Source: a virus
Taxonomy: Duplodnaviria > Caudoviricetes
Reading direction: 5' to 3' (one strand)
Length of the DNA: 64,000 bases
IMG/VR virus record: IMGVR_UViG_3300011868_000001
Location: 189,748 to 253,747 of that record
Shown here: piece after piece, positions 17,169 through 36,547 of the stretch
Layout: every line of letters begins with the position of its first letter
How positions within the stretch are numbered: the stretch's first letter is position 1
The notes under the pieces: model-generated
What the model was told of the DNA's origin: nothing
Seen by the model: the letters and a program-made list of their open reading frames with translations, nothing else
Databases searched by the model: none
Program-made: the position numbers and the translations under genes

Positions 17169-18743
17169 ATGAGTGTACCACCAATTATCCAGTACCCGCT
17201 CGATCTGTCGGGTACGTCGCCAACGAACCGAATCGTTGGTGAGCGTCGAGAAATCTCGACCAATGCAGAACGTGTGTTTGTCCCAAAGGCAGGTCCTTTC
17301 TACACCGAGTCGTTTGTAATCTACAACGATGAGACTGGCGAGCCGCTTCGGCCGGTAGACGACTACCTTTTGGTACAGCCGTTCGCCCAAGCATCGCTGC
17401 GCAGCGGTAAGGATGTTCAATCTGCCGTTGTTCTGAAGATGCAAGCCCCTGTTATCGTCCGCATGGACTACCGCGTTGTGGGTGGTGAGTACTCGTGGAA
17501 CCTGGGAGCGCTGGCTGACCTTATCGCGGAACTCAATCTCGATGAGCGCGCCGTTAAATGGGGATCGATCATTGGTCGTCCCACCATGTACCCGGCCGCA
17601 CCACACATCCATGACATCGGCGATACCTATGGGTGGGAATACGTGGTCTGGCAACTGGAGCGTGTCACTAACGCCATTCTGGTTGGTGACGAGGCGTCCC
17701 ACGAAGAACTGCGTCAACAGATGCTGTATCTGCGTGACCAGCTGCAGGCCAATATCGATGCAGTCGATGGCAAGGTTGACGAACATCTCAATGACTTCGA
17801 AAATCCACATCGCACAACGAAGGCGCAGGTCGGGCTCGGTTCGGTAGACAACTTCCCGACAGCCACTTCGGTCGAAGCCAACACCGGTACAGCCAACAAC
17901 CGCTTCATGACGCCGGCGACGACCACCACCTTGTCGACGCGCATCGCTCGTGAAGAGGTCAATGCCCACGAGGCGAAGAAGAACAACCCCCACGATGTCA
18001 CCAAAGCTCAGGTAGGGTTGGGTAATGTCGACAACTTCCTGACGGCTACTCAGGCACAGGGTGAATCGACCACGGTCAATGACAAGTTCATGACCCCGCT
18101 GCGCACCTACCAGGCCATCATGGTCCATGCCGGTACCTTGCTGAACGTGCACGTGAACAACAAGAACAACCCGCATGAGGTGACGAAAGCACAGGTCGGT
18201 CTGGGGCTGGTAGACAACTTCCAAACCGCGACCCGTACCGAGGCCATTGAAGGTACATCCAATGCACGCTTCATGACGCCGCTCAGGACCAAAGAAGCGA
18301 TCGACGCCATTGCCGGTAACCTGATTCAATCACACGTCTCGAACCTCAACAATCCGCACAAAGTCACCAAGGATCAAGTCGGTCTGGGTAATCTGCCGAA
18401 TGCCATCACGCGCAGCCGGACATTGAACTCTGACGCCCACCTGCTGACCGCCGGCGGTATGTTCGATCACGTGGCCTCGGGCGATCATGACAACCGTTAC
18501 GTGCGCTTGAACACCACCCAGAACACCAGTCTGCGGGTAGTGAACAATAAGCTTCAGTGCTATGTCAGTGGACAGTGGCGACAGATCTGGCCGGCGACCT
18601 GGACTAACTTTGCCGCAGAAAGGGCAAACGATCCGGTACTGGGTAACGACCAGCAAATCCAACTGCTGGTGGCCGGTGGTCGCCTATATGCAACGGTAGC
18701 TGGCGCGTGGCAGCAGGTCTGGCCTGCACTTTGGACAGACTAA
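17169..18743 (+). CDS. Tail fibre protein 2 (phiKZ gp145/146-like)
   Basis: N-terminal YPLDLSG..N domain paralogous to 14699; four NPHxVTKAQVGL repeats; duplicated C-terminal WxQxWPAxW motif. Confidence 0.8.
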   Translation: MSVPPIIQYPLDLSGTSPTNRIVGERREISTNAERVFVPKAGPFYTESFVIYNDETGEPLRPVDDYLLVQPFAQASLRSGKDVQSAVVLKMQAPVIVRMDYRVVGGEYSWNLGALADLIAELNLDERAVKWGSIIGRPTMYPAAPHIHDIGDTYGWEYVVWQLERVTNAILVGDEASHEELRQQMLYLRDQLQANIDAVDGKVDEHLNDFENPHRTTKAQVGLGSVDNFPTATSVEANTGTANNRFMTPATTTTLSTRIAREEVNAHEAKKNNPHDVTKAQVGLGNVDNFLTATQAQGESTTVNDKFMTPLRTYQAIMVHAGTLLNVHVNNKNNPHEVTKAQVGLGLVDNFQTATRTEAIEGTSNARFMTPLRTKEAIDAIAGNLIQSHVSNLNNPHKVTKDQVGLGNLPNAITRSRTLNSDAHLLTAGGMFDHVASGDHDNRYVRLNTTQNTSLRVVNNKLQCYVSGQWRQIWPATWTNFAAERANDPVLGNDQQIQLLVAGGRLYATVAGAWQQVWPALWTD

Positions 18744-18783: not shown

Positions 18784-19290
18784 ATGCTTAAGAAAATCGA
18801 TTTCCAGTTCCAAGGAATCACCGAAGAACTGCTGATGGTGGACCAGTTTCTGTCAAGCCCCCATCCCTATGAACAGGGGTTAGTCAAGTATGTGTTCAAC
18901 GATGCATCGTACGGGATCAACAGTCCTATGGAGTATCTTGAGCACAGTGACAAGCCAATCAAGGTCGAAGGCTATGAACGGTTGAATGCTGTTCTGTTTG
19001 GCGAGTGTCAACGCCTGGCGGCCTACTTCGGACACGCTGGGTATGTATCCTGTCACCTGTTCATCTCCCCTAAGGGATCAACGAGCTTCTCCATGCACAC
19101 CGATCCGGATGATGTGGTCGTCTATGTTGTCAAAGGTGGCAAAGAGTTCGAATCCATTGACCAGCTGGAATCTGTTAAAGCTGGTGATGTGTTATACATC
19201 CCGCGCAATCACCCACACCGTGCCATCAATACCGACAGTTCGCTTATGCTGAGCTTTGGGTTGGAGCTGTTTCTGGAGCAGAAGCTTTGA
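18784..19290 (+). CDS. JmjC/cupin-like Fe(II)/2OG oxygenase
   Basis: HxD motif (SFSMHTDPDDV) and GDVLYIPRNHPHRA with the distal His. Confidence 0.8.
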   Translation: MLKKIDFQFQGITEELLMVDQFLSSPHPYEQGLVKYVFNDASYGINSPMEYLEHSDKPIKVEGYERLNAVLFGECQRLAAYFGHAGYVSCHLFISPKGSTSFSMHTDPDDVVVYVVKGGKEFESIDQLESVKAGDVLYIPRNHPHRAINTDSSLMLSFGLELFLEQKL

Positions 19291-20327
19291 GCCTCAATAA
19301 AACCATTTACGTCAAAACCACAGGCACTTGTAACCTTGACTGTCAACACTGCTTTACCAACGGTAAGAACGGGGACAAGACCCAGTTTGACCCTGAGGTC
19401 ACAGCAGAGTGGGTTAAGGCGTTTATGGCCAAGTACCCAACCGATACTCACTACCACATGGAATTCCATGGCGGTGAGCCGTTCCTGGTGCCGTTGGAGA
19501 AGCTCAAGCGCTATGCCGATCAGTTTGTCGAGCACCCTCATGTGTCGATGTGTGCCAACAGCAACCTGACGTTCAAGTTGACAGATGCGCACATTGCGTT
19601 CATTCAGAAGTATTTCAACGGATACATTGGAACCAGTTGGGACCACTGGATTCGTTGGAGTAACGACAAGCAATTTCAGTTATGGAAACGTAATTTGGAA
19701 TTGTTGAAAGATAATGGTGTGACCATTGCACTTAAGGCGTCGGTAAGTCGCCAACTGCTGACGATGACACCTGACTGGTTCTTGGACCAGATGGAAGCCC
19801 TGGCAGTCGATGAGGTCTCACTGGAACGTCTGACCATGGACGGCAGTGCGCAATGTAACGTCGGTATCTTCCCGGACAATGAAGAGCAAGACAACTGGTA
19901 TCTAGCGCTGTATCAGCGCTATAAGGCTCGTCAAGGCCGCGTGCGCATCAAGACACTCGACATCATTGAAGACAAGCTTAAAACCAATCGGGTCAAGGTC
20001 GATACCAACTGCCGCAACTGCGAGCAGAATCTGGTGACCATCAACTCGGACGGTTCGCTGTCCGGTTGTCCAAATGCAGCAGCAGCACTGCATCATGCGA
20101 AGTTGGAAGATGGGGTCGATGCATTCCTCAGCTCCGATGGACTGATTCAAGAGATCACCTCAGAACTGACATGGGGTGACACCTGCCTTTCCTGCGATGT
20201 CTTTGACCTGTGTGGTGGCGATTGTCACCGCCTGCCGTGGCAGAATGGACGATGCGGTGGGTTGAAAAATACCCTGCGTCATCTGTCAGGCCGGAATACA
20301 CAATCCAATTTGATTTTGAAGGTGTGA
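19287..20327 (+). CDS. Radical SAM/SPASM protein 1
   Basis: CNLDCQHC, FHGGEP, C-terminal CRNC...GCP...CLSCDVFDLCGGDC. Confidence 0.9.
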   Translation: MSLNKTIYVKTTGTCNLDCQHCFTNGKNGDKTQFDPEVTAEWVKAFMAKYPTDTHYHMEFHGGEPFLVPLEKLKRYADQFVEHPHVSMCANSNLTFKLTDAHIAFIQKYFNGYIGTSWDHWIRWSNDKQFQLWKRNLELLKDNGVTIALKASVSRQLLTMTPDWFLDQMEALAVDEVSLERLTMDGSAQCNVGIFPDNEEQDNWYLALYQRYKARQGRVRIKTLDIIEDKLKTNRVKVDTNCRNCEQNLVTINSDGSLSGCPNAAAALHHAKLEDGVDAFLSSDGLIQEITSELTWGDTCLSCDVFDLCGGDCHRLPWQNGRCGGLKNTLRHLSGRNTQSNLILKV

Positions 20328-20328
20328 A

Positions 20329-20880
20329 ATGACCGAACAAATTACCCGTAACCGAATCGCGATGAATGCCAACAGCCGGATTCGCGATCGTTGCAACAGC
20401 GGTATCTCCTGGGGTACCAACAACTACCCGGCCAACTCTGATCCGGCCTGGTTCGGTGGCCCGACCAGCGGTCTGGCAGTATCCATGAGCCGCAATGACT
20501 TCTCCGGCGGTGAGCCGTCAGTATCGCAAGCGGTATCTGCCCTGCGTACATTCGCCAACCGCTTTGCTGCCATCCGCACCATCCGTATCCTGATCTACCG
20601 CAGCAAGTCGGGTTACTCCAGCGGTAACGGCAACATCCTTGAGTACGATGGTACTGCGGTAGCCCACTCGGCGTACTCGTCTGGTGCTCATGCCAATAGC
20701 GTTGCGCTGTCGGCGATGCGTGAAGGTGTGGAGATGGACCTGGACACGCTGAACAGTTCGCTGGACGAGCTGTGGAACGCCTACGTAGCCGGTGCCCGCA
20801 ACACTGTGCTCAACCGCGAACGTGTCATCTGCCATACCAGCTGTCACAGCAACTGTCACTGCGCCCGCGGGCGTCGTTGA
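20329..20880 (+). CDS. Gly/Ser/Asn-rich protein with C-terminal Cys/His repeat (candidate modification substrate)
   Basis: 183 aa ending CHTSCHSNCHCARGRR; codon usage resembles the capsid gene. The ORF is solid; the function is inferred. Confidence 0.75.
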   Translation: MTEQITRNRIAMNANSRIRDRCNSGISWGTNNYPANSDPAWFGGPTSGLAVSMSRNDFSGGEPSVSQAVSALRTFANRFAAIRTIRILIYRSKSGYSSGNGNILEYDGTAVAHSAYSSGAHANSVALSAMREGVEMDLDTLNSSLDELWNAYVAGARNTVLNRERVICHTSCHSNCHCARGRR

Positions 20881-20914
20881 TCACCCATCGTCCTCTTTAG
20901 CCGAGACATTCATC

Positions 20915-21670
20915 ATGAGCGAACAACCCACCACCCCTGCGGTAATCCCCTGCACTGCTCCAATCGCGGTCAGTGACCTGAAGCGCAAGTTCACCGAAGA
21001 CGTTGTGTTTGTTATCGACGTCGATGCCAGTAAGTTAAAAGGTCGTGCTCTGCTGACGTACCTGTCGAACCTCAACACCAATATCCATCTGCAATTTGGT
21101 AGTGTCGAGGCGACCACCGAACTGCTGCGTGATTACATGGCCTCGACGTTGCTGATCAGCATCGCTGAATTGGAAGACCTTGCTATCAACCTGCTACTGG
21201 CAGCCACTGGTCGTGCGTACACCCTTCCGTTCGAACCAGCGTCCTTCATTGAAGAGAACGAGGCGCTGATCGAGACCTGGCTCAAGCGACTGGACTCACT
21301 TCCGGCGTTTGCGCTGTACTGCCACCCGGCGCACAAAGAGGCCGTGGAGCAGACCTACCCAGAAGACACGGACGAAAGCATGGCGGGGCTTAACTTCGTC
21401 AAGCTGATCGAGCATGAGTTGTTCCCGGTTCTGATGGCGGGCGTGCAGGAAAGTGATTACAACTGGAACCGCGTGCTGTTTAACGAGTACATCTTCGCTG
21501 GCGATAATCTGTTTAAGTTCTTTGCCAGCAAGAACAACCCGTACTTCATAGCACTGCTCGCCGATGAATGTCCGGAGGAGTTTGGCCGTGTTCTGCCTAT
21601 CATGCAGACCCTGGTGCATAAAACGACCCAATGTGTAAAGGAAATCGAACATGTATCACATCCGCAGTAA
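20915..21670 (+). CDS. Hypothetical protein (rSAM cluster)
   Basis: 251 aa from MSEQPTT; overlaps the next gene. Confidence 0.75.
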   Translation: MSEQPTTPAVIPCTAPIAVSDLKRKFTEDVVFVIDVDASKLKGRALLTYLSNLNTNIHLQFGSVEATTELLRDYMASTLLISIAELEDLAINLLLAATGRAYTLPFEPASFIEENEALIETWLKRLDSLPAFALYCHPAHKEAVEQTYPEDTDESMAGLNFVKLIEHELFPVLMAGVQESDYNWNRVLFNEYIFAGDNLFKFFASKNNPYFIALLADECPEEFGRVLPIMQTLVHKTTQCVKEIEHVSHPQ

Positions 21671-22706
21671 AGCCTACGTCGAGATCGATTCTCGCGTAAC
21701 GCGCGACAATCCCTATATCTCGTTCGGCAAGCACGTCGGCTACGAGTACGTCCCGGTGGCACACGAGACTGCTGCTCAACAACTCACTTACGCCCAGTCC
21801 CTCGATGACCTGAGCAGTGATGAATTCAAAGCCGCCATGAATGCAGCGTTCACCAGCAAGGAAAAGGTGTTCATCTTCGCCGATGGCAAAACCTACCTGC
21901 GTCTGTACGCCATGGTCGTCAAAGCGCTGCTTCCATCGGTGACTCTCGATGTGTTCCGTTGGATCTTCCTGTGCAAGAAGGCAACCTTCAACGTCTCCTT
22001 GCTGAACATCCGCAAGCCGGCGTCGAACATTCTGGATGAAGTCCAGATCAATGCCAAGACCATCGAAGCACTGTTCAAGCAAGAAGACCCGCATCAGCAG
22101 GCGATGAATGAACTCATGGCAGCGGCGCCCGATGAAGTTTCGCTGGAATGGCGTATCCTGCGTCTGCTGACCTGTGACCGGGTCGGGAAGCTGCCCAAGA
22201 CGCTGCGCAACATCCTGCGGCGTATCGCCCTAGCCAATACCCACGACGCCCTCGACGTCTGGGGTCGGATGATTGCCGATCCGGGCATGTGGGAGTTTGC
22301 TGGGTGTGACATGGACACCCTGATGAACGGCAACAGTGTCTTTGAAGGCACCCTGAAGTTCCATTACCTGAACAACCCGATGTTCCTGCAACCTGGTGTG
22401 TTCGAAAACGAACCGACCAAGGACTGGATTGTTGGTCTGCTCAAGGAACTGGTGCAGGTGCTGGAGTTCTGTGACGAAGGTCCGACCGCCGGGCGTACTC
22501 GTCTGATCCTCGAGCTGATCAAAGACGAGACCAACCTGCAAGACCCGGAAGCTCTCAAAGCACGGGTTGTGACCATGTTCAAAGGCGCCAAGCGTTTGGC
22601 CCTGCCGAATGCCGATTCTGGCAAGTACGATGAAAACCTCATCCGCTACGTATTGAACGAGGACGTCGAAGTCCTGCGTCAGTGCGTCAAAGGAGCGCAG
22701 TGGTAA
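21651..22706 (+). CDS. Hypothetical protein (rSAM cluster)
   Basis: 351-aa ORF with AAGGA RBS; TAATG coupling to the next gene. Confidence 0.78.
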   Translation: MYHIRSKAYVEIDSRVTRDNPYISFGKHVGYEYVPVAHETAAQQLTYAQSLDDLSSDEFKAAMNAAFTSKEKVFIFADGKTYLRLYAMVVKALLPSVTLDVFRWIFLCKKATFNVSLLNIRKPASNILDEVQINAKTIEALFKQEDPHQQAMNELMAAAPDEVSLEWRILRLLTCDRVGKLPKTLRNILRRIALANTHDALDVWGRMIADPGMWEFAGCDMDTLMNGNSVFEGTLKFHYLNNPMFLQPGVFENEPTKDWIVGLLKELVQVLEFCDEGPTAGRTRLILELIKDETNLQDPEALKARVVTMFKGAKRLALPNADSGKYDENLIRYVLNEDVEVLRQCVKGAQW

Positions 22707-23701
22707 TGGAACTGATCCCCGTAGTGAACATCCTCCAAGAGAAGAAGGGTAAGTGGAAAGAAGCTCATCTGATTCTGTTTGAGTACTGTAATCTACGGTG
22801 TTCTTTCTGCCATCAAGACCACGACTCCAAGGTGGGGTTTGACACCATCGCTGAAAAGGTCGAGACGCTCATTGCCAACACCGACCCACGGCAACCGTAC
22901 GTGGTGAACATGACCGGTGGTGAGCTGTTCTTGGACGAGTTCCCTGATGAGCTGTTCGAGCAGTACTACCAAGCAGGTAAACGTATCTTCGAACACTTCG
23001 ACGATGCCTTGCTGGTACTGGGAACCAACCTGGTCTATCATCGGGTGGAGCGGTTGATCAAGCTGGTCAATCGACTCTCCACTCATGGTCGGGTCCAGAT
23101 CGCCACGTCGTACGATCCAGCGGGTCGTTTTGATCGCGTCAGCCGGATGCTGTTCATACACAACCTGCAGCGCGTGAAGGAATACGTCAAGACCATCAAC
23201 GTGGTGATCACCAAGCAGAACATCGAGGCGTTCCTGAGTGAAGACGAAGGGTATGAAGTCGCCTGGATGTGCGAACACTTCGATGTGTACTTCGACCACT
23301 ACATCCCCAGTCAGATGTATGAATACATCCAGCCGGATGAAGACCTGATCAGTCAGCTGTACCTCAAACTCAATGAGCGCTATCCGAACTCCTATCCGAT
23401 CAAGGACTGGAAGAACAATGCGTTCAACGAGACCACCTGTCGCTCGACCAAGATCGTCAACAAAGACGGGATTGTCAGCACCTGTTGGTCCGAGGCCGGT
23501 AAGAACGCCATCTTAGATGAAGCCGAAGGCCTTAAAGCCAAGGACGAAGCTGAGATGCGGTTCGTGGAGAAATACAACTGCTTCGCTTGCGAGTACTATT
23601 CTCGCTGCGGGATGCGTTGCTTCCTCCATCACTCGTTCATTGACGACGGAAATGATGTCTGTCAGATCAAATTGATGTTCGATAAAGTGGTAGAGGCATA
23701 A
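22706..23701 (+). CDS. Radical SAM protein 2
   Basis: CNLRCSFC, MTGGELF, C-terminal CFACEYYSRCGMRC. Confidence 0.88.
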   Translation: MELIPVVNILQEKKGKWKEAHLILFEYCNLRCSFCHQDHDSKVGFDTIAEKVETLIANTDPRQPYVVNMTGGELFLDEFPDELFEQYYQAGKRIFEHFDDALLVLGTNLVYHRVERLIKLVNRLSTHGRVQIATSYDPAGRFDRVSRMLFIHNLQRVKEYVKTINVVITKQNIEAFLSEDEGYEVAWMCEHFDVYFDHYIPSQMYEYIQPDEDLISQLYLKLNERYPNSYPIKDWKNNAFNETTCRSTKIVNKDGIVSTCWSEAGKNAILDEAEGLKAKDEAEMRFVEKYNCFACEYYSRCGMRCFLHHSFIDDGNDVCQIKLMFDKVVEA

Positions 23702-23705
23702 CAAC

Positions 23706-23737
23706 ATACGGGCTCCGGGCAACCGGAGCCTATATGC
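23706..23737 (+). terminator. Hairpin (CATA...TATG family) splitting the rSAM cluster
   Basis: GGCTCCGG-GCAA-CCGGAGCC flanked by CATAC/TATATG, followed by an AT-rich stretch and TATG at 23772. Confidence 0.6.
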
Positions 23738-23871
23738 CGTTTGCATTTAAATAAATACTTGCGTCAGCTGATATGAATGTTAGTCATGGGGAATTTGTCA
23801 CCATTCCCATGTTATGACCTAGACAGTAAGGTATCTTCCCTTACTGGACGATTACCCGAGAGGCTTTCCCC

Positions 23872-24048
23872 ATGAATGTACAAGAATTTCCCTTGACGCC
23901 TGAAGGCTATCAGCAGGCCATGCAATGGATGAAGGACGAAGGACTCGATCCAGTGGAACATGCTAACCGAGAACTGTCCACTGACGGTTACACCATTGTC
24001 AATCTGGTGAACCACCTGCGCCAACGTAAGGTCGCACAGACTGCCTAG
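23872..24048 (+). CDS. Small hypothetical protein (58 aa; not in the ORF track)
   Basis: MNVQEFPLTPEGYQQAMQWMKDEG...RKVAQTA; GAGAGG RBS. Confidence 0.65.
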   Translation: MNVQEFPLTPEGYQQAMQWMKDEGLDPVEHANRELSTDGYTIVNLVNHLRQRKVAQTA

Positions 24049-24061
24049 AAGGAATGTGTAA

Positions 24062-25150
24062 GTGGACTTGATCCTGAAGCCAACCCAGAAATGTAACTTT
24101 AAGTGCACCTTCTGCTCGAGCACCTACTTGAGCGAAGACAATCGGGAAATTGTCGATCTGAGTCAGGTTGCACTGTTCATCAAGCGTTTCCCTGAGACGC
24201 GTACGGTGATTGTCAATGGGGGCGATCCGTTGATGATGCCGCCAGAGTACTACTGGGACCTGATCGACATTCTCGATCAGTTGGGTTCTCAGGCCAGCAT
24301 CTCCTTTACCACCAACCTCTGGCCGTTCTATAAGAAACCTGAATTGTGGGAAGAGCTGTTCAAACACCCCAGAATTGGCGTGACCACCTCGTTCCAATAC
24401 GGTGAGGGGCGGCTTAAAGGTGACGGCACACCGTTGACCGAGGCTGAGTTCATTGCCATGAGTGATCTGTTTCTGGAACGGATCGGCTATCGTCCTGATT
24501 TTATCGCAGTGATCGACAAGGACAATGAACACACTGTCCTTGATACGGTCCGGTTGGCTAAACGCCTAGGGGTGGAAGCCAAGGTCAACTATGCGGTGGC
24601 CTCAGGACCTGTGGTGGTCAACAAAGGCATCACCATGGGACATGCTGAAAGCATGTACACCCAAGCTGACATGTATAAAGCCTACATCGAGATTTACGAT
24701 GCAGGTCTCATGCAGTGGGAGTTCAACACCAAGCAGATGGTCAAGCGCATCAAGACGCAGAACACCATCTGCCCATTGAGCCGGGACTGCGACAGCGGGA
24801 TTCGAGCCTTGCAACCTGGTGGCGGCTATTACTCCTGCGGGGCCTTTGGCGATGACCTGAAGTATCCCATCGACTTTAAGAAAGAGATGGCCGGTGAATT
24901 CTTCCGTCCCTTGAGCAATCAAGAAGAGCTGTGGTCGATGAAGGAGGCCTGTAACGAGTGTCCGATGTTCCTGATCTGCAATGGCTGTCGTAAGACCGTG
25001 ACCGACACCAAGCGGTTAGGTCTGGCTGAGCATCACTGCAAGACCATGAAGAGCATTGCACCGCGGATCATCGAACTCAACGGGATGCAGGACTACCTGG
25101 TCCCCACCCCTTACGTGGACGAGTCTGTCCAGATCATCGCCCGAGGCTAA
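24062..25150 (+). CDS. Radical SAM/SPASM protein 3
   Basis: CNFKCTFC, VNGGDPL, C-terminal CPLSRDC...SCG...CNECPMFLICNGC. Confidence 0.9.
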   Translation: MDLILKPTQKCNFKCTFCSSTYLSEDNREIVDLSQVALFIKRFPETRTVIVNGGDPLMMPPEYYWDLIDILDQLGSQASISFTTNLWPFYKKPELWEELFKHPRIGVTTSFQYGEGRLKGDGTPLTEAEFIAMSDLFLERIGYRPDFIAVIDKDNEHTVLDTVRLAKRLGVEAKVNYAVASGPVVVNKGITMGHAESMYTQADMYKAYIEIYDAGLMQWEFNTKQMVKRIKTQNTICPLSRDCDSGIRALQPGGGYYSCGAFGDDLKYPIDFKKEMAGEFFRPLSNQEELWSMKEACNECPMFLICNGCRKTVTDTKRLGLAEHHCKTMKSIAPRIIELNGMQDYLVPTPYVDESVQIIARG

Positions 25151-25152
25151 GC

Positions 25153-25395
25153 ATGGCGTATATCGATCCTTTTGAGCGCAGTCCGGTAGCCGACTCCCTG
25201 TCGGCTGAATCCGCCAAGCTCGATGAGCAGCTCAACGCAGTCTTCCAACGTGAAGCCGAGTTCTTTGAGCGTCAACTGGCCCATCGTAACATGCGTCTAA
25301 ACTCACGGGGAGTGGCTCAATTGGAAATGAACCTACGGGATTTTCTGAACAAGGCCATTGCTGACATCGAAAAGGACCTAGACGATGCTGGCTAA
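25153..25395 (+). CDS. Hypothetical helical protein
   Basis: 80-aa ORF with GAGG RBS between rSAM genes. Confidence 0.65.
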   Translation: MAYIDPFERSPVADSLSAESAKLDEQLNAVFQREAEFFERQLAHRNMRLNSRGVAQLEMNLRDFLNKAIADIEKDLDDAG

Positions 25396-25440
25396 CAAAT
25401 TGGCCATGGCCATCGCAATCATCATCCATGAGGGCTTATT

Positions 25441-26445
25441 GTGGGCCGACCGAAAATCAACCTCAGCCTGAACCCCACTTATTATTGCAACCTGCGCTGT
25501 GAGTTCTGCTACCTCACGCCAGAGCAGCTGGGCGATAAGACCCGTCTGGAGCTGGATAAGTTCGAAGAAGTGCTGCTCGATATCTTGCAGCATTACGATG
25601 TCGGTCATGTCGACCTGTATGGCGGTGAAGTCCTCTTGTTGCCCCCGGAATACCTGCGGGGTCTCAAAGACATCCTGCACACCTACGGGATCGATGATAT
25701 TGTTCTGGTGACCAACCTCACCCTGACCAATGAGATCACCGAGGACTTGGACTTCGATCTGTCAGTGTCGTATGACTTCGGGGCACGGGAGATGCATGAG
25801 CGGGTGTTCAACAACCTGCTGGCATTGCCCAGACCGTACACCATCCTGACCCTGGCCAGCCGGAAGTTTCTCGATACGGTGAGTGTGGATGAATTCGTCC
25901 AGACCATGAACCTGTTGAGTGGGGCCAAGGACGTCGAGATCAAGCCGTACAGCGCGAATCAGGCTAACACGCATGCAGTGTACTACGATGAGTTCGAACG
26001 CTTCGTATGGGCGGTTATAGAGCATCCTGACAGGCAGTTCTACTTCGAGAATGAACGCCAGATCAAAGAAGCGGTTGAGGGCCAACGTAACGCCTTCAGC
26101 GATGACCACCTGTACATCACTCCGACTGGCCAATTGGCCGTTTTGGAGTTCGATGCCAATGACAATGAGTTCTTCCTCCCGGTTGATGGAGTGGAAGGCT
26201 ATCTTGCGTGGTGTGCAAAAGAAAAGCAGGCCGTGGCCCAGAACGGGCATTGCGGGACCTGTACCTACATGGGACATTGCCTCTCCGAACATTTGCGGGA
26301 GGTGAAAGACTTGTCCCATTCCTGTAACGGTTTTAAGGGGTTACTTGACCTATGGACAACCCACACCTCGTCCAACACCGACAACGCCTGGAGATCACGC
26401 TTGATCTATTCCGAGGCTGTGCCAACCACTGCGCCGGATGCATGA
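25441..26445 (+). CDS. Radical SAM protein 4
   Basis: CNLRCEFC, LYGGEV, C-terminal CGTCTYMGHC. Confidence 0.88.
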   Translation: MGRPKINLSLNPTYYCNLRCEFCYLTPEQLGDKTRLELDKFEEVLLDILQHYDVGHVDLYGGEVLLLPPEYLRGLKDILHTYGIDDIVLVTNLTLTNEITEDLDFDLSVSYDFGAREMHERVFNNLLALPRPYTILTLASRKFLDTVSVDEFVQTMNLLSGAKDVEIKPYSANQANTHAVYYDEFERFVWAVIEHPDRQFYFENERQIKEAVEGQRNAFSDDHLYITPTGQLAVLEFDANDNEFFLPVDGVEGYLAWCAKEKQAVAQNGHCGTCTYMGHCLSEHLREVKDLSHSCNGFKGLLDLWTTHTSSNTDNAWRSRLIYSEAVPTTAPDA

Positions 26446-27380
26446 TCGACCGCACCATCGGTGGCGATGTCGATGATCTGCCAGAACTCAAAGCCCTGAT
26501 CGAGGAGATGACCGCCGCCGGTTATGTTGCTTTCGATCTGGGCGTTGGACCAACCGACTACATGACGGCCGATAACAAGGACGAAGTCATGGTCCATCCG
26601 GTTTTCCAAGCCATGGCACAGTTGTTTCATCAGGTGACCTTCAATGCTGCATTCCTGGAAAAGGACCTGACGAAATACACCCGCATGTGTCAGGAGATCG
26701 ATCAGTGCATCCCAGGCAAACCGATTCGTTTCCTGATCCCGGCTGCTCCCAGTTTCTTCAAGACCAATAAGTTCAGTGACATGATCAACATGAAACTGAA
26801 CCATGTCAAAGACAGTCTGCACGATGCCTTCCTCAACGAGGCGGGCTTTGTGGTAAACTGTACCAAAGACACGGTCGACGATGAATTTGAAGAGATGCTG
26901 GTCAAAGGGTTCGATGTCGAGTTTCCGGTCGATAAGGATGACATCCTGAACATCCCCTATGGTCGGGCACCGGTCAAAGACCTTCAGGTGGCGCAGCAGA
27001 TTCAGCGCATGAGTTATCGCATCAGTCACTATTACAAATTGCTCAATGGTACCGACGAGCGCCGGAAGAATCCTGATCTGTGCCTCAATACCGGGACCAT
27101 GACCAATCTGCTGTATACCGATGGCAAACTGTACTGGGTACCCTTCCTCAAGGACGATTGTCCGTTCCTTGAAGATGCGTTTACCGTGCCCAAGCCCTGG
27201 ACTATGGATAACCTGCTGGCGACGCGTCAGAAGGCGCTGGATGCCTCTCTGGAGTACCTCAAAGACACCCCCTGCATGCAGTGTCCTTACATCTCCAGTT
27301 GTGCTGAGAAAGGCATTACCAGCATCATGCAATTTATGGGTATCAAGGACTGTCTGGTAGGGCTTGACTATGCACAATGA
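26352..27380 (+). CDS. Divergent radical-SAM-like protein 5
   Basis: CANHCAGC near the N-terminus, GPTD instead of GGEP, C-terminal CMQCPYISSC. Confidence 0.7.
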   Translation: MDNPHLVQHRQRLEITLDLFRGCANHCAGCMIDRTIGGDVDDLPELKALIEEMTAAGYVAFDLGVGPTDYMTADNKDEVMVHPVFQAMAQLFHQVTFNAAFLEKDLTKYTRMCQEIDQCIPGKPIRFLIPAAPSFFKTNKFSDMINMKLNHVKDSLHDAFLNEAGFVVNCTKDTVDDEFEEMLVKGFDVEFPVDKDDILNIPYGRAPVKDLQVAQQIQRMSYRISHYYKLLNGTDERRKNPDLCLNTGTMTNLLYTDGKLYWVPFLKDDCPFLEDAFTVPKPWTMDNLLATRQKALDASLEYLKDTPCMQCPYISSCAEKGITSIMQFMGIKDCLVGLDYAQ

Positions 27381-28413
27381 ACGCGTCTCTCAAACCTTTA
27401 ACCTTGGGCTTGAAGTGCTCAAGGGGTGTGGGTACAGTTGTTCGGGCTGTACGGTCGACAAGAACTTTGCCGACTTCGATGTACCAGAAGATGATGCCCG
27501 CGCTATCCTTGGTCTGCTCGCCGATCTTAAAGCGCAAGACTGGCGAATGCTCGAGCTTAAGATCGGGCCGACAGACATCACCAGCTCCGACAATGGCTTT
27601 GCCGTGTTGCAGCACCCGGTGATCAAAGAGATCGCCTCGTACTACAAGGTGCTGACCTTAAACGCTGCCATGCTCCATGACCGTAACCTGCCTGAGTTGG
27701 CAGAGCTGGTCGACGAGTTGATGCCGGGCAAGTACGTTAACATCGGCACCCCGTTTACCTTGAAGAACGTGGCCAATGAAAAGTACATGGCGATGATGAA
27801 AGAACGCTTGGCGTACTTCCAGAGTCTGTTGAAGAAAGCGTCTTTCACTCGCCTGTATGCCACGATAAACATTGAGGAAGAGAACCTTAAGCAGTTCAAC
27901 CCTGAGTCGTTCAGTCTGATTCGTAACTATGACTTCGGCTCTGGGATCGATAAGGTGATTGAGTTTCCGTTTGTCAATGCTCGCCAAGGGTTTGACAACC
28001 TGCTCATTGCCGAACGCTTCAAGCGCGACATCAAGCAGTTTGCTGATTTTGCCAAGACGCGTATCAACACCCATGAGTTCGTGCCGTTGATCCCCGGTGT
28101 CAAAGAAGGCTATGAGTACACGTACCGTACCGGCAAACTGTACTCGACCATTGTGCTGGTTGAGAACCTGACGCTGTACAAAGACAAGTATGAGTTGGCA
28201 AGGCCATGGACGGGCGAGCGGCTACTCAAGCACCGAGAAGACGCCTACATCAACAACCTGGTCAAGTACAGCGAACATCCCCAATGTGGGACGTGTTGTT
28301 TCTTGGATCATTGCGCCCGGTGCGACGTCCAACATCTGATGGAAGAGACGGGCAGTGACACCTGCCTGATCGAGATGCATAACCGCTGGGATCTGGCTCA
28401 TGTAGAGCACTGA
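27370..28413 (+). CDS. Divergent radical-SAM-like protein 6
   Basis: CGYSCSGC, GPTD, C-terminal CGTCCFLDHC; apparent paralog of 26352. Confidence 0.7.
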   Translation: MHNERVSQTFNLGLEVLKGCGYSCSGCTVDKNFADFDVPEDDARAILGLLADLKAQDWRMLELKIGPTDITSSDNGFAVLQHPVIKEIASYYKVLTLNAAMLHDRNLPELAELVDELMPGKYVNIGTPFTLKNVANEKYMAMMKERLAYFQSLLKKASFTRLYATINIEEENLKQFNPESFSLIRNYDFGSGIDKVIEFPFVNARQGFDNLLIAERFKRDIKQFADFAKTRINTHEFVPLIPGVKEGYEYTYRTGKLYSTIVLVENLTLYKDKYELARPWTGERLLKHREDAYINNLVKYSEHPQCGTCCFLDHCARCDVQHLMEETGSDTCLIEMHNRWDLAHVEH

Positions 28414-28426
28414 TGAGGAACCGTCA

Positions 28427-28861
28427 ATGGACTCGTTATACACTATCGTCGACAACGTGGCAATTCCTGAGTGGCTTGTCGATGCTGCAATGTGCGAACC
28501 GAATAAAGGGTCCATTGACACGCCCGAGATTTGGAGCTTTGTAGAGAAACAGCTCCTGCCGCTGGTCATGCGTCAGACTCAGGCACAACCGACCCTTTAT
28601 GTATCGTCGAATCACGTGCACATCAGTGCAGCGGGCCTGACCCCGCACGATCATCTGCCCAACGCATTTACGTCAGTGCTTTATCTGGTAGATGCCGAAG
28701 GACGGTTGATCATCGACCCCGATGGGATCAATGAACGGGTCAAACCGGCGGCTGGTCGATTCGTCATTTTCAAAGGTGAAACCATTCATGCGGTGGAGAA
28801 ATCGCCGCAGAATGAATTGCGTATTTCGCTGGTGAGCAACTATGAATACCCTTCCGTATAA
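28427..28861 (+). CDS. Fe(II)/2OG-type oxygenase
   Basis: PHDH..FTSVLYL, GRFVIFKGETIHAV, RISLVSN. Confidence 0.72.
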   Translation: MDSLYTIVDNVAIPEWLVDAAMCEPNKGSIDTPEIWSFVEKQLLPLVMRQTQAQPTLYVSSNHVHISAAGLTPHDHLPNAFTSVLYLVDAEGRLIIDPDGINERVKPAAGRFVIFKGETIHAVEKSPQNELRISLVSNYEYPSV

Positions 28862-29273
28862 GGCCTTCCAACGACTCTATGACGAGCTGGTGCAAGAACA
28901 CAGCGACGCATTTGAGTTAATGGAGTTTGTCATTGATGATGAACTCGTCAACAACGCCATGAAGTATTTCGAGGCCGCGACCTTTCCGCTGATCTATCCG
29001 GCCAAGAGCTATGCAGTGGCGATCATCTATGCCCACAAGCTCAGTGAGATTTATGGTCTGGATATCCACACGGTCCTCGATGACAAGGACCTGTTCCTTG
29101 GCCAAGACCCGTACTTTGTCCCGTACAGTGAAGACCCGGCGACGTACGAGGCCATCCTTCAGCGCTTAAAGCACAAGCCCAACTGGCTGGAATCGGGGTG
29201 GGCTCCGAAAAGCGTTCAATACTGCTTGCTCGAATGCACCGAGGCAGGCATCCAATCATTGACGGAGGTGTAA
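28842..29273 (+). CDS. Hypothetical protein (rSAM cluster)
   Basis: 143-aa acidic ORF overlapping the upstream gene. Confidence 0.72.
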   Translation: MNTLPYKAFQRLYDELVQEHSDAFELMEFVIDDELVNNAMKYFEAATFPLIYPAKSYAVAIIYAHKLSEIYGLDIHTVLDDKDLFLGQDPYFVPYSEDPATYEAILQRLKHKPNWLESGWAPKSVQYCLLECTEAGIQSLTEV

Positions 29274-29831
29274 ATGGACACGCACTTGTTGTGGGCGACG
29301 CCGGTGGCGCGGATCAATGTGGCTGATCAGTTCGACATGGCGGCCTGGGCTGATGAAGTCTTTGCCATGTACACCATGACCAATGGCGAAGACGACCGGC
29401 AGCGGTTCATCGACCCGGATATCTTCCCCGTGATCCTGAAGATGCGTGATGAAGTCATCACCCCGGCGGTCAATGCCTTCTGCAAGGAACACTTCGGACA
29501 AGACATGGAGAAATTCTATGTCGAGACCAATGGCAAGTGGATCGTTGAAGGCGAAGGCCTCTACGCCCATCTGCATCCTGGCAGCGTGCTTTCGGCTATC
29601 TGCTATCCAGGTGACTCAGCCAATGGGTTGAACATGTTCGACCCCAGGCTCAATGCCATGCGAGGCTACCCGAAACGGATGCGTAATCATCACTTTGCCA
29701 ACTTCCGTATCAGCCCTAAGCAGGGGGATGTCTGGATCTTCCCGAGCTACGCGCAGCACAGTGTCTCGCACGTGACCGAGGAAGTCCGGCTGTCGCTGCT
29801 GCACGAATACTACATGACCGATAACCTGTAA
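29274..29831 (+). CDS. Fe(II)/2OG-type oxygenase (TIGR02466-like)
   Basis: AHLHPGSVLSAICY, FDPR, GDVWIFPSYAQHSV, RLSL. Confidence 0.78.
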   Translation: MDTHLLWATPVARINVADQFDMAAWADEVFAMYTMTNGEDDRQRFIDPDIFPVILKMRDEVITPAVNAFCKEHFGQDMEKFYVETNGKWIVEGEGLYAHLHPGSVLSAICYPGDSANGLNMFDPRLNAMRGYPKRMRNHHFANFRISPKQGDVWIFPSYAQHSVSHVTEEVRLSLLHEYYMTDNL

Positions 29832-29840
29832 GGATTTTCC

Positions 29841-30497
29841 ATGTCTGAACAATACCCTCTGTATCCAGGGGCTGATCGCGGCCAGTTCCGTGTAATGCGC
29901 CTACTGGACAACTCCGGTGTGCAATTGCGAGCCCATGCCCGCATCAAAGACGCAGTGGTATTCAACTACCTGTCAGCGATGCAGTACGCGATCATTGGTT
30001 ACAGCCTGGAATGGTGGAAGGATGGTGACCCGGCACCGTATGACGGTGGTGAGGCCTTGCCGTATATCCCCAAAGGCCGGCCCAACCTGAACAAACTGTA
30101 CTTTCGCGGCAAGACCACCCTGACCCCGAACATGCTGCACCTGGAAGATGCCATCATCAACGACTTTCTCAACAGCAAGGCATTGGCAGATCCTATGTCA
30201 CTGTGGTCGTATACCCAAGAGGCAGCTGAACAAGTTGCCAGTGCGGCTGAATGGCGTCCGTTGTTGAACAGTGCGTATTCGTTCGCCAACGCTGTCCATA
30301 TCACTCGTCTGGCTGCCACACCCAGCTCGCCACTGACGATCGACAGTGAGGGGATGCGGTTTGATTATCGCCGCACCAGTAGCCCCGATCAGGTCTTCAG
30401 TACCATCCTGCGGGACTACAAATTCGAGAAGCTCCGAGACTGCTATCCGGCAATGCTCGAACTCATTGAGAGTGAACAAAATGGCAGCAACCGTTAA
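29841..30497 (+). CDS. Hypothetical protein
   Basis: 218-aa ORF with AAGGA RBS, last gene before the endolysin. Confidence 0.72.
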   Translation: MSEQYPLYPGADRGQFRVMRLLDNSGVQLRAHARIKDAVVFNYLSAMQYAIIGYSLEWWKDGDPAPYDGGEALPYIPKGRPNLNKLYFRGKTTLTPNMLHLEDAIINDFLNSKALADPMSLWSYTQEAAEQVASAAEWRPLLNSAYSFANAVHITRLAATPSSPLTIDSEGMRFDYRRTSSPDQVFSTILRDYKFEKLRDCYPAMLELIESEQNGSNR

Positions 30498-31194
30498 CCA
30501 ACTGAAAGAACTGCAGCGTGGACTGAAAGCTATGGGCCTGTACGCCGGCAACATCGATGGTGCCTGGGGTCAACTGAGCCATGGGGCATTCATGAACGCC
30601 CGACGCATGACCGAGAAGCAGCGTAAGGATGCTGTTGCCCGTCTGGGCATCGATCCGATCCTCCTCGCCTACTGTAATTCAACGGCCTGGTCGGAGAAGG
30701 TCAGTGCTCAATTCGTTGAGTCGGTCAAACTCATGGTCGCCAACCTGGGCATGCCTGCCTCGGGGGCTGACGACATGATGGCCTGCATGGCATGGGAAAC
30801 GGGTGAGTCGTTCCGTCCCGATATCAAAAATGGTGCAGGTTCGGGTGCAGTCGGCCTGATCCAGTTCATGCCTGCCACCGCCAAGGCCCTGGGTACCAGC
30901 ACCGACGCGCTGGCGAAGATGACGGCTGAAGAGCAGTTGATCTACGTCTACGACTACTTCAAGCCGTACCGCAATCGCCTGAAGAACTTGGGCGACCTCT
31001 ACATGGCCATCCTTTATCCCGTGGCGATTGGCAAACCGGATGACTACGTACTGTTCAAAGAAGGCACGGTAGCCTACACCCAGAACAGGGGGTTGGATAT
31101 CAATAAGGACGGGAAAATCACCAAAGCTGAGTGTTGCGCAAAGGTGCAGCAAAAACTCGTAGCTGGCCTGCATCCTCGCATGCTGCGCGTTTAA
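30481..31194 (+). CDS. Endolysin: peptidoglycan-binding domain plus lytic transglycosylase-like domain
   Basis: LQRGLKAMGLYAGNIDGAWG (PG-binding), WETGESF, GAVGLIQFMP, DLYMAILYP, NRGLDINKDGKIT. Confidence 0.85.
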   Translation: MAATVNQLKELQRGLKAMGLYAGNIDGAWGQLSHGAFMNARRMTEKQRKDAVARLGIDPILLAYCNSTAWSEKVSAQFVESVKLMVANLGMPASGADDMMACMAWETGESFRPDIKNGAGSGAVGLIQFMPATAKALGTSTDALAKMTAEEQLIYVYDYFKPYRNRLKNLGDLYMAILYPVAIGKPDDYVLFKEGTVAYTQNRGLDINKDGKITKAECCAKVQQKLVAGLHPRMLRV

Positions 31195-31257: not shown

Positions 31258-31905
31258 TCATCGTTTGTAGTCACGATTCGCTTGTCGCTTAGTAGCTGTC
31301 TCCTCAATAGACCATCCGTTATTTAAACGGTAGGCAACTGTATTGGGGTCAAGTCCTATCAACTCAGCAAATGATGCCAATGTCATTTCAACCCCTTCAT
31401 AGATCACCGTTCTGTTACTCGAACGATTGTTGGCCTGTACCTTTTCTGTGACCCAGCGGCAATTACCTGGCTCATAACCACCGTCGTTATCGCGCCGATC
31501 AATGCTCAATTCATCACTATATCCAGACGACATAGCCCATTGCTCGAACGCTTGAAAGCTATTAGCCCATTCGGCACAGACATGAATGCCGCGACCACCA
31601 TAGCGATCGTAGGCGCCATGTGTTTCTAAATCGCAGCGGCGATTCATCGCTGCCCAGATACGGTACAGGCGCGTTTGACCGCCGTTGGCTGCATGGCCGT
31701 GTATGGTTGCCTTTTGACGAGATACTTCTCTACGATGACATCCACATGACTTACTGTCACCACGTTTAACCGAATGTGCGGCGAGAGTCGTTACCTGTCC
31801 ACAATCGCATTGAAATTTCCAGTATGCGTTCTTCTGATGCGAGTGTGAAAATTCGAGCGCCACGAGTTTGTTGTAGCGATTTCCTTTTATGTCTGCAATT
31901 GCCAT
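31258..31905 (-). CDS. HNH-type homing endonuclease
   Basis: WKFQCDCG, SKSCGC, YGGRGIHVC, SIDRRDNDGGYEPGNCRW; more AT-rich than its flanks. Confidence 0.8.
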   Translation of the reverse strand: MAIADIKGNRYNKLVALEFSHSHQKNAYWKFQCDCGQVTTLAAHSVKRGDSKSCGCHRREVSRQKATIHGHAANGGQTRLYRIWAAMNRRCDLETHGAYDRYGGRGIHVCAEWANSFQAFEQWAMSSGYSDELSIDRRDNDGGYEPGNCRWVTEKVQANNRSSNRTVIYEGVEMTLASFAELIGLDPNTVAYRLNNGWSIEETATKRQANRDYKR

Positions 31906-35902: not shown

Positions 35903-36547
35903 TTATCTGCGGTTAGGTCTTGCCAAAGCTTCCTCAATGCTCAAACCATCTCTACTAAGACGGCGCGCTAATGTAGACACCAAGATGTTACGTTCTTTAG
36001 CAAGCTGAGTGATTGTTTTCATCTCACCATCAACAAGGAACCGTTTGTTGGATCGTTTGTTGTTAGCTTGTTCTTCGCGAGTCGCCCAGCGACAATTGCC
36101 CGGCTCATAATTACCGTTGTTATCGATGCGCTCTATCGAATGGTCCGGAGATGGTTTTGGTCCCATATCCTCCAGAAATGATTCAAACGAATTTAACCAT
36201 CTGTCGCATACTTGAATCCCTCGACCACCATAATCGGGATAGGCGTCGGATTCGACATTATGACAACGAACCTTCATGGCGTGCCATGCTCGACATTCAG
36301 GGGTGGTAGAACCACCATGTGTCTTGTTTGATTTACCTAGACGAGCTACAGACTCACGATGAAGACATCCGCACGATCTAGTCCCATTTTCTCGTCTAAG
36401 AGCAGCCCCCGATACAGAAACTGCAGTACCACAGTCACACTCACATACCCACTTAATGCCGCCAGAAGACGTGCGTAGGCTAGAACGAAGTACAACTAAT
36501 AGTCTTCCGAACCGTTTACCGGTCAAATCTATCACTTCTCTCATCAT
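35903..36547 (-). CDS. HNH-type homing endonuclease
   Basis: DLTGKRFGRL, WVCECDCG, RSCGC, YGGRGIQVCDRW, SIERIDNNGNYEPGNCRW. Confidence 0.82.
   Translation of the reverse strand: MMREVIDLTGKRFGRLLVVLRSSLRTSSGGIKWVCECDCGTAVSVSGAALRRENGTRSCGCLHRESVARLGKSNKTHGGSTTPECRAWHAMKVRCHNVESDAYPDYGGRGIQVCDRWLNSFESFLEDMGPKPSPDHSIERIDNNGNYEPGNCRWATREEQANNKRSNKRFLVDGEMKTITQLAKERNILVSTLARRLSRDGLSIEEALARPNRR

Follow-up and report, generated by a model that had tools for sequence, protein, structure and literature searches.

Why would a phage keep, between its tail-fibre genes and its lysin gene, a long run of genes for radical S-adenosylmethionine (radical SAM) proteins and oxygenases, and on what would these enzymes act? 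The question is posed by the window analysed here, the final 64 kb of the 253,747-base virus record IMGVR_UViG_3300011868_000001, which is 96% complete. Its nearest match in gene order and sequence is Pseudomonas phage pPa_SNUABM_DT01 (DT01), a phiKZ-like jumbo phage, and the phage and near strains of it occur as contigs in public wastewater, soil and gut sample runs. The run, or cassette, comprises sixteen open reading frames (ORFs) starting at 18784 (J), 19287 (R1), 20329 (CH), 20915 (U1), 21651 (U2), 22706 (R2), 23872, 24062 (R3), 25153, 25441 (R4), 26352 (R5), 27370 (R6), 28427, 28842 (U3), 29274 and 29841 (U4). A preliminary description made from the sequence alone had reported sixteen co-oriented ORFs between tail fibres and an endolysin. 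All sixteen do lie on the + strand, with fibre-type genes matching PHROGs virion/tail families upstream (14699 and 17169) and a lysin gene downstream (30481). On balance, the cassette enzymes probably modify the tail of CH, which would be a fibre-associated virion protein.

The CH protein, its tail and the virion

CH (20329..20880, +), the proposed substrate and virion protein, has 183 amino acids (aa), with a folded body and an invariant C-terminal tail of the form CHxS-CHx[SN]-CHx[SAN]-RxRR at residues 168-183 (20830..20877, +). Its profile picks up 669 representatives at 50% clustering. An alignment of 102 CH sequences, 23% identical on average, has nine invariant columns and no more, all in the tail: three Cys, three His and three Arg. 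In 192 of 209 homologues the protein ends exactly with this tail. Because the tail does not vary although the body has diverged to 23% identity, we read CH as an enzyme-recognised core on a variable carrier. The H-x-X triads follow a further rule: in 816 of 816 cases they end in Ser, Asn, Ala, Gln or Asp, never in Gly, and Gly takes the middle position in 102 of the 816. This is as expected if a beta-carbon is required at the third position. It is quite likely that the tail is covalently modified.

AlphaFold models the body with confidence (mean pLDDT 89) and the tail poorly (pLDDT ~50). Compared with solved structures, the models of CH and U1 gave best Z values of 5.1 and 4.8 and no Foldseek match with E <0.001, which is no proof of a new fold. 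Natural fusions occur inside intact cassettes, joining CH in one lineage to an S74 chaperone, a hallmark of fibres and spikes that are trimeric, and in another to a Gly-rich fibre-type domain. A search of 8000 candidates gave no longer CH-domain proteins, which is weak evidence; the fusions were found through the CH profile. The CH gene has a modestly high codon bias, 0.75 over 44 codons where the genome median is 0.62, and this was given no weight. Residual co-variation with CH is weak (J 0.40, U2 0.32, R1 0.25, fibre 0.21, U1 0.12) and was not used as evidence because physical linkage confounds it.

Variants of CH were also seen (P0068, L050). One repeats the tail unit to give about ten CHxS units; others end in GDGPGGG in place of RxRR, and one of these runs on into an S74 chaperone. 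Three proteins of 500-660 aa from Myoviridae sp. ctijX18 (BFVD A0A8S5USJ7, A0A8S5USJ8 and A0A8S5USV2) match the CH fold with TM 0.53-0.59.

A homologue of CH has been detected in particles, which supports the virion protein proposed as target in the preliminary description. Gp170 of phage Atu_ph07 occupies the same slot after R1, aligns with CH over the last 72 columns (HHalign 99.3%) and resembles it in Foldseek (TM 0.59, E 5e-5). Eight of its peptides, giving 35% coverage, were recovered from Atu_ph07 particles, and its neighbours gp164-169, gp171 and gp172 are not listed among the particle proteins (PMC6102473, Table S5). By our own count from that table, 34 proteins in the 25-40 kDa range have at least three peptides, and gp170 (32 kDa) is the only one of them to peak in gel band 1; the others with their peak in that band are for the most part of 75-140 kDa. 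The high-mass band may reflect disulfides or enzyme-made links. In the virion table of phage RP31, which covers 32 proteins only, the gene after the fibre was not found by name. There is good reason to expect CH to be a virion component in the window phage as well.

Association with fibres in phages and bacteria

The neighbourhood of CH was surveyed in 80 IMG/VR loci fetched with the CH profile, 55 of them with full flanks; CH clusters at 60% identity define 28 viral lineages. Wherever a viral locus has 3 kb or more on both sides of CH, radical SAM genes adjoin it (70 of 70 loci, 26/26 lineages). The cassette always comes with the Cys/His-tailed protein, the co-occurrence that the preliminary description had proposed to check. 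R1 lies directly upstream of CH in 77 of 78 loci and U1 directly downstream in 78 of 79, and the typical gene order is J-R1-CH-U1-U2-R2-R3-R4. In the 55 full-flank loci R1, U1 and R3 are present in 55, J, R2 and R4 in 53, U2 and a 2-oxoglutarate (2OG) oxygenase in 50, U3 in 47, R5 in 23, R6 in 19 and U4 in 7. The reverse check, starting from R3, finds a CH gene in 21 of 21 conventional loci with enough upstream DNA, and the one rearranged R3 contig searched carries two CH genes further away. The order is not a matter of chance, since DT01, at 35-78% identity, and dozens of further lineages keep it. Within the genome, a genome-wide search finds no radical SAM gene outside the cassette and no second CH protein.

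Fibre-type protein A (14699..17098, +; 799 aa) is phiKZ gp131-like, and its homologues are annotated as tail or virion proteins. Fibre-type protein B (17169..18743, +; 524 aa) ends in a WxQxWP module and is a candidate carrier of the putatively modified protein. Across the survey a fibre-type gene lies directly upstream of the cassette, in at least one member, in 19 of the 28 viral lineages. In phiKZ-like phages the fibre is a gp131-like pair; in T4-like phages its ending resembles that of Atu_ph07 gp176, which is a virion protein and matches a tail-fibre PHROG. Among the remaining lineages a fibre gene lies within ~3 kb in two, CH is fused to the Gly-rich fibre-type domain in one, and one is too short to judge.

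The cassette is carried by cultured phages in 15 records, namely DT01, the Chiangmaiviruses (RSL2, RSF1, FLC6, FLC8, S13 and others), Atu_ph07 and Phosso; R3 shows 55-70% identity in cultured phages. The N-terminal part of the fibre occurs in 223 phage records and the cassette enzymes in only these 15, and for that reason the cassette can be called accessory, an insertion as the preliminary description supposed. The last 84 aa of 17169 match 15 cultured phage records only, and in each of them a radical SAM cassette lies behind the fibre; in three (RP12 twice, RP31) the cassette is a different one, with other radical SAM genes, a DUF3050 protein and an unannotated 65-aa ORF that ends in a CxCxCxC motif. 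The controls for this coupling point the right way: in FLC4-3B and FLC9 an S74-ended fibre is followed by one or two small genes and no cassette enzymes, and the first fibre gene of FLC4-3B resembles that of RP12. The small gene after the S74 fibre in these two phages was considered as a gp38-like adhesin and rejected, with no support from Pfam, PHROGs or PDB.

Several loci carry variations. In RP12 (NC_041911) the cassette comprises three annotated radical SAM genes and a DUF3050 protein, a different system in the same genomic slot; between the fibre and this cassette, which is unrelated to that of the window, stands an unannotated 65-aa ORF ending CxCxCxC (L126:15806-16003). Gp28 of Achromobacter phage JWF (L131:6685-8136) and gp48 of Ralstonia phage RSP15 (L132:7263-8135) are fibres with a CxC-repeat end beside a radical SAM gene; in JWF gp28 the CxC motif directly precedes a Hint domain that could cut itself and expose the motif. 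In one relative (L007:16231-18820) the cassette end has an insertion, ahead of U4 and the lysin, of another fibre-B paralogue and a gene for a host-specificity fibre. At L058:3301-6439, in a lineage without a nearby fibre gene, two tryptophan-halogenase-like genes and extra 2OG oxygenases precede the cassette. Many T4-like and bacterial cassettes (L022-L033, L122, L153, L159) add a gene of 520-580 aa that the window lacks, the L122 copy being annotated as a B12-binding radical SAM protein. Locus L117 (Amycolatopsis) proved a false match, and L116 is probably a phage contig within a bacterial assembly.

The cassette also occurs in bacteria. Two Bdellovibrionota assemblies were matched directly, and U1 is present in 11 of 301 sampled Bdellovibrionota genomes. 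In nine bacterial regions the radical SAM genes lie amid ordinary chromosomal genes, with the tailed protein visible in seven. Because these chromosomes carry the cassette and no phage genes were recognised around it, the system is not confined to phages. Of 10 Bdellovibrionota genomes, 8 have an S74 gene no further than 20 kb from U1, against 0.3 expected by chance, although these genomes have only 1-4 S74 genes each; shared ancestry lowers the weight of this count. The proximity repeats, within a cell, the fibre link of the phages. Thus the earlier proposal of a pathway for a virion protein gains on the side of the fibre link, which extends to bacteria, and loses its restriction to virions. 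Several of the neighbouring S74 genes (300-420 aa) begin with a prepilin N-methylation motif. Such short prepilin and S74 genes, seen at L153-L157 and L159, are mostly paired with a gene of ~200 aa ending GRHWVKV; the one partner scanned matched no Pfam family. Predatory bacteria are known to make phage-like S74 trimeric fibres, the MAT fibres of Bdellovibrio (Caulton et al. 2024, PMC10769870), which the cassette neighbours recall in being S74 proteins of predatory bacteria. They differ in that the neighbours are short and several have the prepilin motif, and radical SAM enzymes are unmentioned in that paper.

Enzymes of the cassette and related systems

The six proteins that the preliminary description singled out for a CxxxCxxC motif and Cys-rich SPASM/twitch-like tails (R1, 19287..20327; R2, 22706..23701; R3, 24062..25150; R4, 25441..26445; R5, 26352..27380; R6, 27370..28413; all +) do have that motif and a C-terminal Cx2Cx5C...C array. 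They are not all alike. R1, which precedes CH, R3 (40.6 bits), the best-conserved cassette gene, and R4 (36.6 bits) exceed the cut-off of PF04055, and R2 falls 1.7 short of it (27.8 versus 29.5 bits). Among 320 homologues of R1-R4 an aromatic residue precedes the third Cys in 314 and GG[ED] is found in 317. By these motifs R1-R4, all core to the cassette, can be taken as canonical members of the radical SAM superfamily; R1 has two auxiliary Cys arrays and R4 one. In homologues of the accessory R5 and its paralogue R6, Gly takes the SAM-contacting aromatic position in 53 of 58, and Gly, Asn or Asp in 58 of 58, an aromatic residue never. The window proteins have GPTD in place of GGE/GGD, R5 reads CxxxCxGC, and PF04055 gives E 0.04 against R5 and no match against R6. 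R5 and R6 may therefore not be working radical SAM enzymes, and may be altered enzymes or Fe-S scaffolds. A suspicion that the R5/R6 homologue of RSL2 lacks the Cys triad was wrong: the annotated start of ORF71 (L002:11368-12753) is too late, and the triad lies upstream in the same frame.

The auxiliary array is kept in all six, and TIGR04085 scores 26.7 (R1), 20.3 (R3) and 16.8 (R2) bits against a cut-off of 27. In the NCBIfam profile search every cassette protein stays below the cut-offs of the named maturase families. R1 comes closest to the profiles FxsB (the best in NCBIfam), PapB and YhhB, and among solved structures to ChlB; these are peptide or protein maturases, and all the matches are weak.

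Of the oxygenases, J (18784..19290, +; core) is JmjC-like, as described earlier, with PF08007 at 41.5 bits against a cut-off of 22; its H105-D107-H145 motif and K120 are conserved among homologues. Sequence searches of J against solved structures gave weak cupin matches only and no ribosomal oxygenase. Two further 2OG oxygenases had been proposed. That at 29274..29831 (+) stands, with PF13759 at 47.4 bits; it is TIGR02466-like, scoring below that model's cut-off. That at 28427..28861 (+), a small 2OG-Fe(II) oxygenase-like protein of variable copy number with an H-x-H...H pattern, is weaker, PF13640 and PF13759 both being under cut-off. The profile search suggested earlier has given matches above cut-off to PF04055 for R1, R3 and R4 and to a JmjC family for J, and none above it to TIGR04085 or TIGR02466.

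Two known systems offer close analogies. In the HXS antiphage system (HxsA/B/C/D, TIGR03976-03979; Li et al. 2026, PMC13128918), HxsA carries an H-x-S repeat on a whole protein, and its radical-SAM-dependent maturation gives +8 Da. As proposed for the cassette, a folded protein with His-x-Ser repeats among basic residues is matured by radical SAM enzymes together with a helper, and the product remains a protein, not a short peptide; CH likewise has repeated His-x-Ser on a folded protein, as three H-x-[S/N/A] units, each after a Cys. HXS differs in having two enzymes, the order D-B-C-A, N-terminal repeats, periplasmic export, a peptidoglycan-binding domain and a role in bacterial defence, whereas the cassette has 4-6 enzymes plus oxygenases, three C-terminal Cys-His-x-Ser units, no signal peptide seen and a virion/fibre context. 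The HxsB and HxsC models score 19-28 bits against cut-offs of 268-370 (TIGR03978 27.5/370; TIGR03977 up to 27.5/267.9). CH, U1, U2, U3 and U4 have no NCBIfam match, to HxsA and HxsD or otherwise, and the D-B-C-A order is not seen.

The triceptide maturases HaaB, ScaB, YhhB, MscB/FxsB and ChlB join an aromatic residue i to the beta-carbon of i+2, including His-C2 to Ala (PMC11002830). The CH tail, with H-x-[S/N/A] and never Gly, fits this i/i+2 rule in 816/816 triads, and R1 has its best NCBIfam match (FxsB) and best solved relative (ChlB), both weak, among these enzymes. CH differs from triceptide precursors in being a folded protein of 180-300 aa with an invariant Cys before each triad. The cyclophane families FxsB, YhhB, AmcB and GrrM give at best 49.6 bits (FxsB cut-off 370; cut-offs 310-445). 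A short leader-core precursor of the triceptide type is not found, CH being a folded 183-aa protein, and no peptidase or transporter families were found in the cassette, four ORFs of which are of unassigned function. PapB (ranthipeptides) and anSME (anaerobic sulfatase maturation) resemble the cassette as radical SAM enzymes with auxiliary clusters that act on Cys of peptides or proteins, and they score similarly weakly; they differ at 48.9 versus 340 and 48.1 versus 349 bits, with no CxxxD, no CxPxR and no sulfatase in the block. Ribosomal oxygenase-type JmjC proteins share with J the PF08007 match and the H-x-D...H and Lys residues and differ in that J is a bare 168-aa domain. By analogy, the cassette would work like HXS and triceptide maturation and is a member of neither family; it would be radical SAM maturation of a protein-borne core, a known principle in a new role.

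The cassette genes have been listed in print for DT01 (gp57-66; PMC8541153) and phage S13 (gp70-82; PMC11898562). An eight-gene radical SAM cluster among the structural genes of Aeromonas phage 332-Vera, possibly a further copy of the cassette, was called highly unusual (PMC12390700). These papers identify no substrate and test no function, in agreement with the earlier remark that no characterised example is known; clusters of several radical SAM genes have only been remarked on in genome papers (PMC8541153, PMC12390700). Our literature search, with most subscription journals outside its coverage, brought up no case in which a protein of the phage particle is matured by radical SAM enzymes of the phage.

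Proposed pathway, alternatives and remaining genes

CH would be made alongside the late structural genes, with U1 or some other helper holding it. Its 16-residue tail would then be modified by R1-R4, J and a 2OG oxygenase with the aid of U1, U2 and U3, and the finished protein would join the particle together with the upstream fibre, most likely at or along the distal end, where it would serve attachment or stability. A location on the fibre itself is slightly favoured. The chemistry might be His-to-C-beta cross-links on the H-x-S/N/A triads, as in triceptides, or Cys-to-C-beta thioethers. The PF08007 members ycfD, NO66 and MINA53, JmjC proteins of the ribosomal oxygenase type, beta-hydroxylate His or Arg in proteins. 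As both residues are invariant in the tail, J might add beta-hydroxylation of one or the other. The result would be a rigid end, possibly metal-binding or cross-linked between subunits.

A number of points weigh against this pathway. The five viral lineages (of 28) that have no fibre-like gene in the flanks fetched, and the Bdellovibrionota chromosomes with the cassette, partly realise what the preliminary description had named as adverse to it. The coupling to the fibre end amounts to three phage lineages with weak tblastn scores. The virion evidence comes from one distant homologue, the 296-aa gp170, aligned over its last 72 columns; it is good but not clean, because the preparation, purified with polyethylene glycol, also contains some non-structural enzymes. 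The loading buffer lists no reductant, and disulfides alone could therefore explain the presence of gp170 in band 1. The never-Gly position is also compatible with structure or metal binding, and the bacterial CH proteins examined show no obvious signal peptide. Finally, 4-6 enzymes and 2-3 oxygenases are many for 16 residues, and some may have other targets.

Several of these points feed other explanations. The tail could be modified and the product be no part of a fibre, whether a released peptide like the peptides that are made by the ribosome and modified after translation (RiPPs) or a packaged or cytoplasmic effector that, for example, blocks the entry of competing phage DNA. HxsA provides the precedent, in that it needs two radical SAM enzymes, has basic-rich H-x-S repeats and blocks DNA entry; the predicted flexibility of the CH tail, the five lineages without a neighbouring fibre and the bacterial copies fit as well. 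We regard this as rather unlikely. The CH body has a confidently predicted fold, changes rapidly in sequence and in some phages is joined to fibre-type domains, gp170 occurs in particles as a high-mass species, and the bacterial copies adjoin S74 fibres. Neither a signal peptide nor a peptidoglycan-binding domain was found, and no protease or exporter was recognised in the cassette. The last agrees with the earlier remark that no exporter or peptidase is evident. Three Cys and three His are also classic metal ligands, and with band 1 open to explanation by disulfides the tail could be an unmodified metal or disulfide site. The enzymes would then make a cofactor, metallophore or sugar-like group for loading onto the tail or fibre, and their number and variable extras (B12-dependent radical SAM proteins, oxygenases, the DHFR-like genes of RSL2) do resemble a biosynthetic kit. 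This too is unlikely: the core contains no recognised glycosyltransferase, ligase or nucleotidyltransferase, the families and structures nearest R1 are peptide or protein maturases, albeit weak matches, and a peptide recognised by enzymes would account well for the constant RxRR end and for the beta-carbon rule.

The coupling of the 17169 end module to cassettes, and the Cys motifs that JWF and RSP15 place on the fibre beside a radical SAM gene of another type, would suit a main substrate that is the fibre itself (17169 or 14699), or else a host protein, with CH a Zn- or Fe-binding partner. Such an arrangement seems improbable, as the upstream fibre type varies between phiKZ-like phages, T4-like phages and bacteria and the CH tail does not, and as the window fibres are almost without Cys and have no repeated core motif. 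Action on DNA or nucleotides, in base modification, repair or metabolic support, with the CH gene a passenger, is most improbable. The DT01 genome paper links six of the genes to DNA repair and host metabolism, without test (PMC8541153), Chiangmaiviruses have DHFR-like genes inside the block, and viperin and QueE profiles match weakly. These matches are limited to the shared N-terminal motif and lie far below cut-off where one exists: QueE models score 16-23 bits against 260-300, and viperin (NF038283) reaches up to 31.7 against 180 bits, the PADLOC matches covering mainly the first 120 residues. QueC (PF06508) has no match in the 96% complete genome (FolE, QueD and DpdA were not searched genome-wide), the genome has no radical SAM gene elsewhere, and the order around CH is fixed in phiKZ-like phages, T4-like phages and bacteria. 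The earlier dismissal of DNA modification is supported, no evidence for that activity having been found.

Modification of the CH tail remains the preferred explanation. Accounts of phage attachment usually invoke proteins that carry no modification. Should the tail be modified, chemistry invisible to sequence annotation would underlie host recognition or particle stability in many uncultured phages of fresh water, sea and soil, in the biocontrol phages RSL2, FLC6, S13 and Atu_ph07 and in some Bdellovibrionota, and a defined, expressible substrate would be at hand for four to six new radical SAM enzymes. More tentatively, phages and predatory bacteria might share a RiPP-like finishing of fibres, in which a rigid, cross-linked and hydroxylated Cys/His end acts as a receptor ligand or as a covalent lock between subunits. 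Such a ligand would be natural-product-like, a macrocycle or an iron-holding siderophore mimic. Enzyme-finished fibre ends would then form a general, overlooked class, the unrelated CxCxC-tail cassette of RP12 filling the same slot. The elements new here are the fibre end-module coupling with its controls, the bacterial S74 proximity count, the beta-carbon rule and the atypical R5 and R6.

The remaining genes can be dealt with briefly. U1 (20915..21670, +; 251 aa, phrog_20767), a core gene, has no conserved Cys/His catalytic set by conservation analysis and is a possible adaptor or chaperone. The near-core U2 (21651..22706, +; 351 aa) has no family match in profile searches. For U1 and U2 the ESM Atlas gave only scores <0.9, among them a GAP1-type lead for U2. 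U3 (28842..29273, +; 143 aa, phrog_20737) is near-core, and U4 (29841..30497, +), found in close phiKZ-like relatives only, is probably outside the core. Downstream, 30481..31194 (+) encodes a lysin with family matches to peptidoglycan-binding and soluble lytic transglycosylase (SLT) domains.

A hairpin at 23711-23730, found by stem scan and followed by an AT-rich gap, separates the ORF run in two. The stretch 23711..23780 (+) is a probable terminator/promoter, and the run probably forms two transcription blocks divided there; matches in a sigma-70 promoter scan were no better than chance. The ORFs of 58 aa (23872..24048, +), seen in a few close relatives only, and 80 aa (25153..25395, +), rare among relatives, are dispensable; both are absent from many relatives, and a near-identical strain has a clean deletion of the latter. 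A near-identical wastewater strain has ~860 different bases at the start of R3 (window 24067-24092), possibly an intron or homing-endonuclease insertion. Two similar ORFs of ~215 aa with CxC motifs (31258-31905 and 35903-36547, -), the first directly behind the lysin, resemble by eye homing endonucleases of the HNH/AP2 type.

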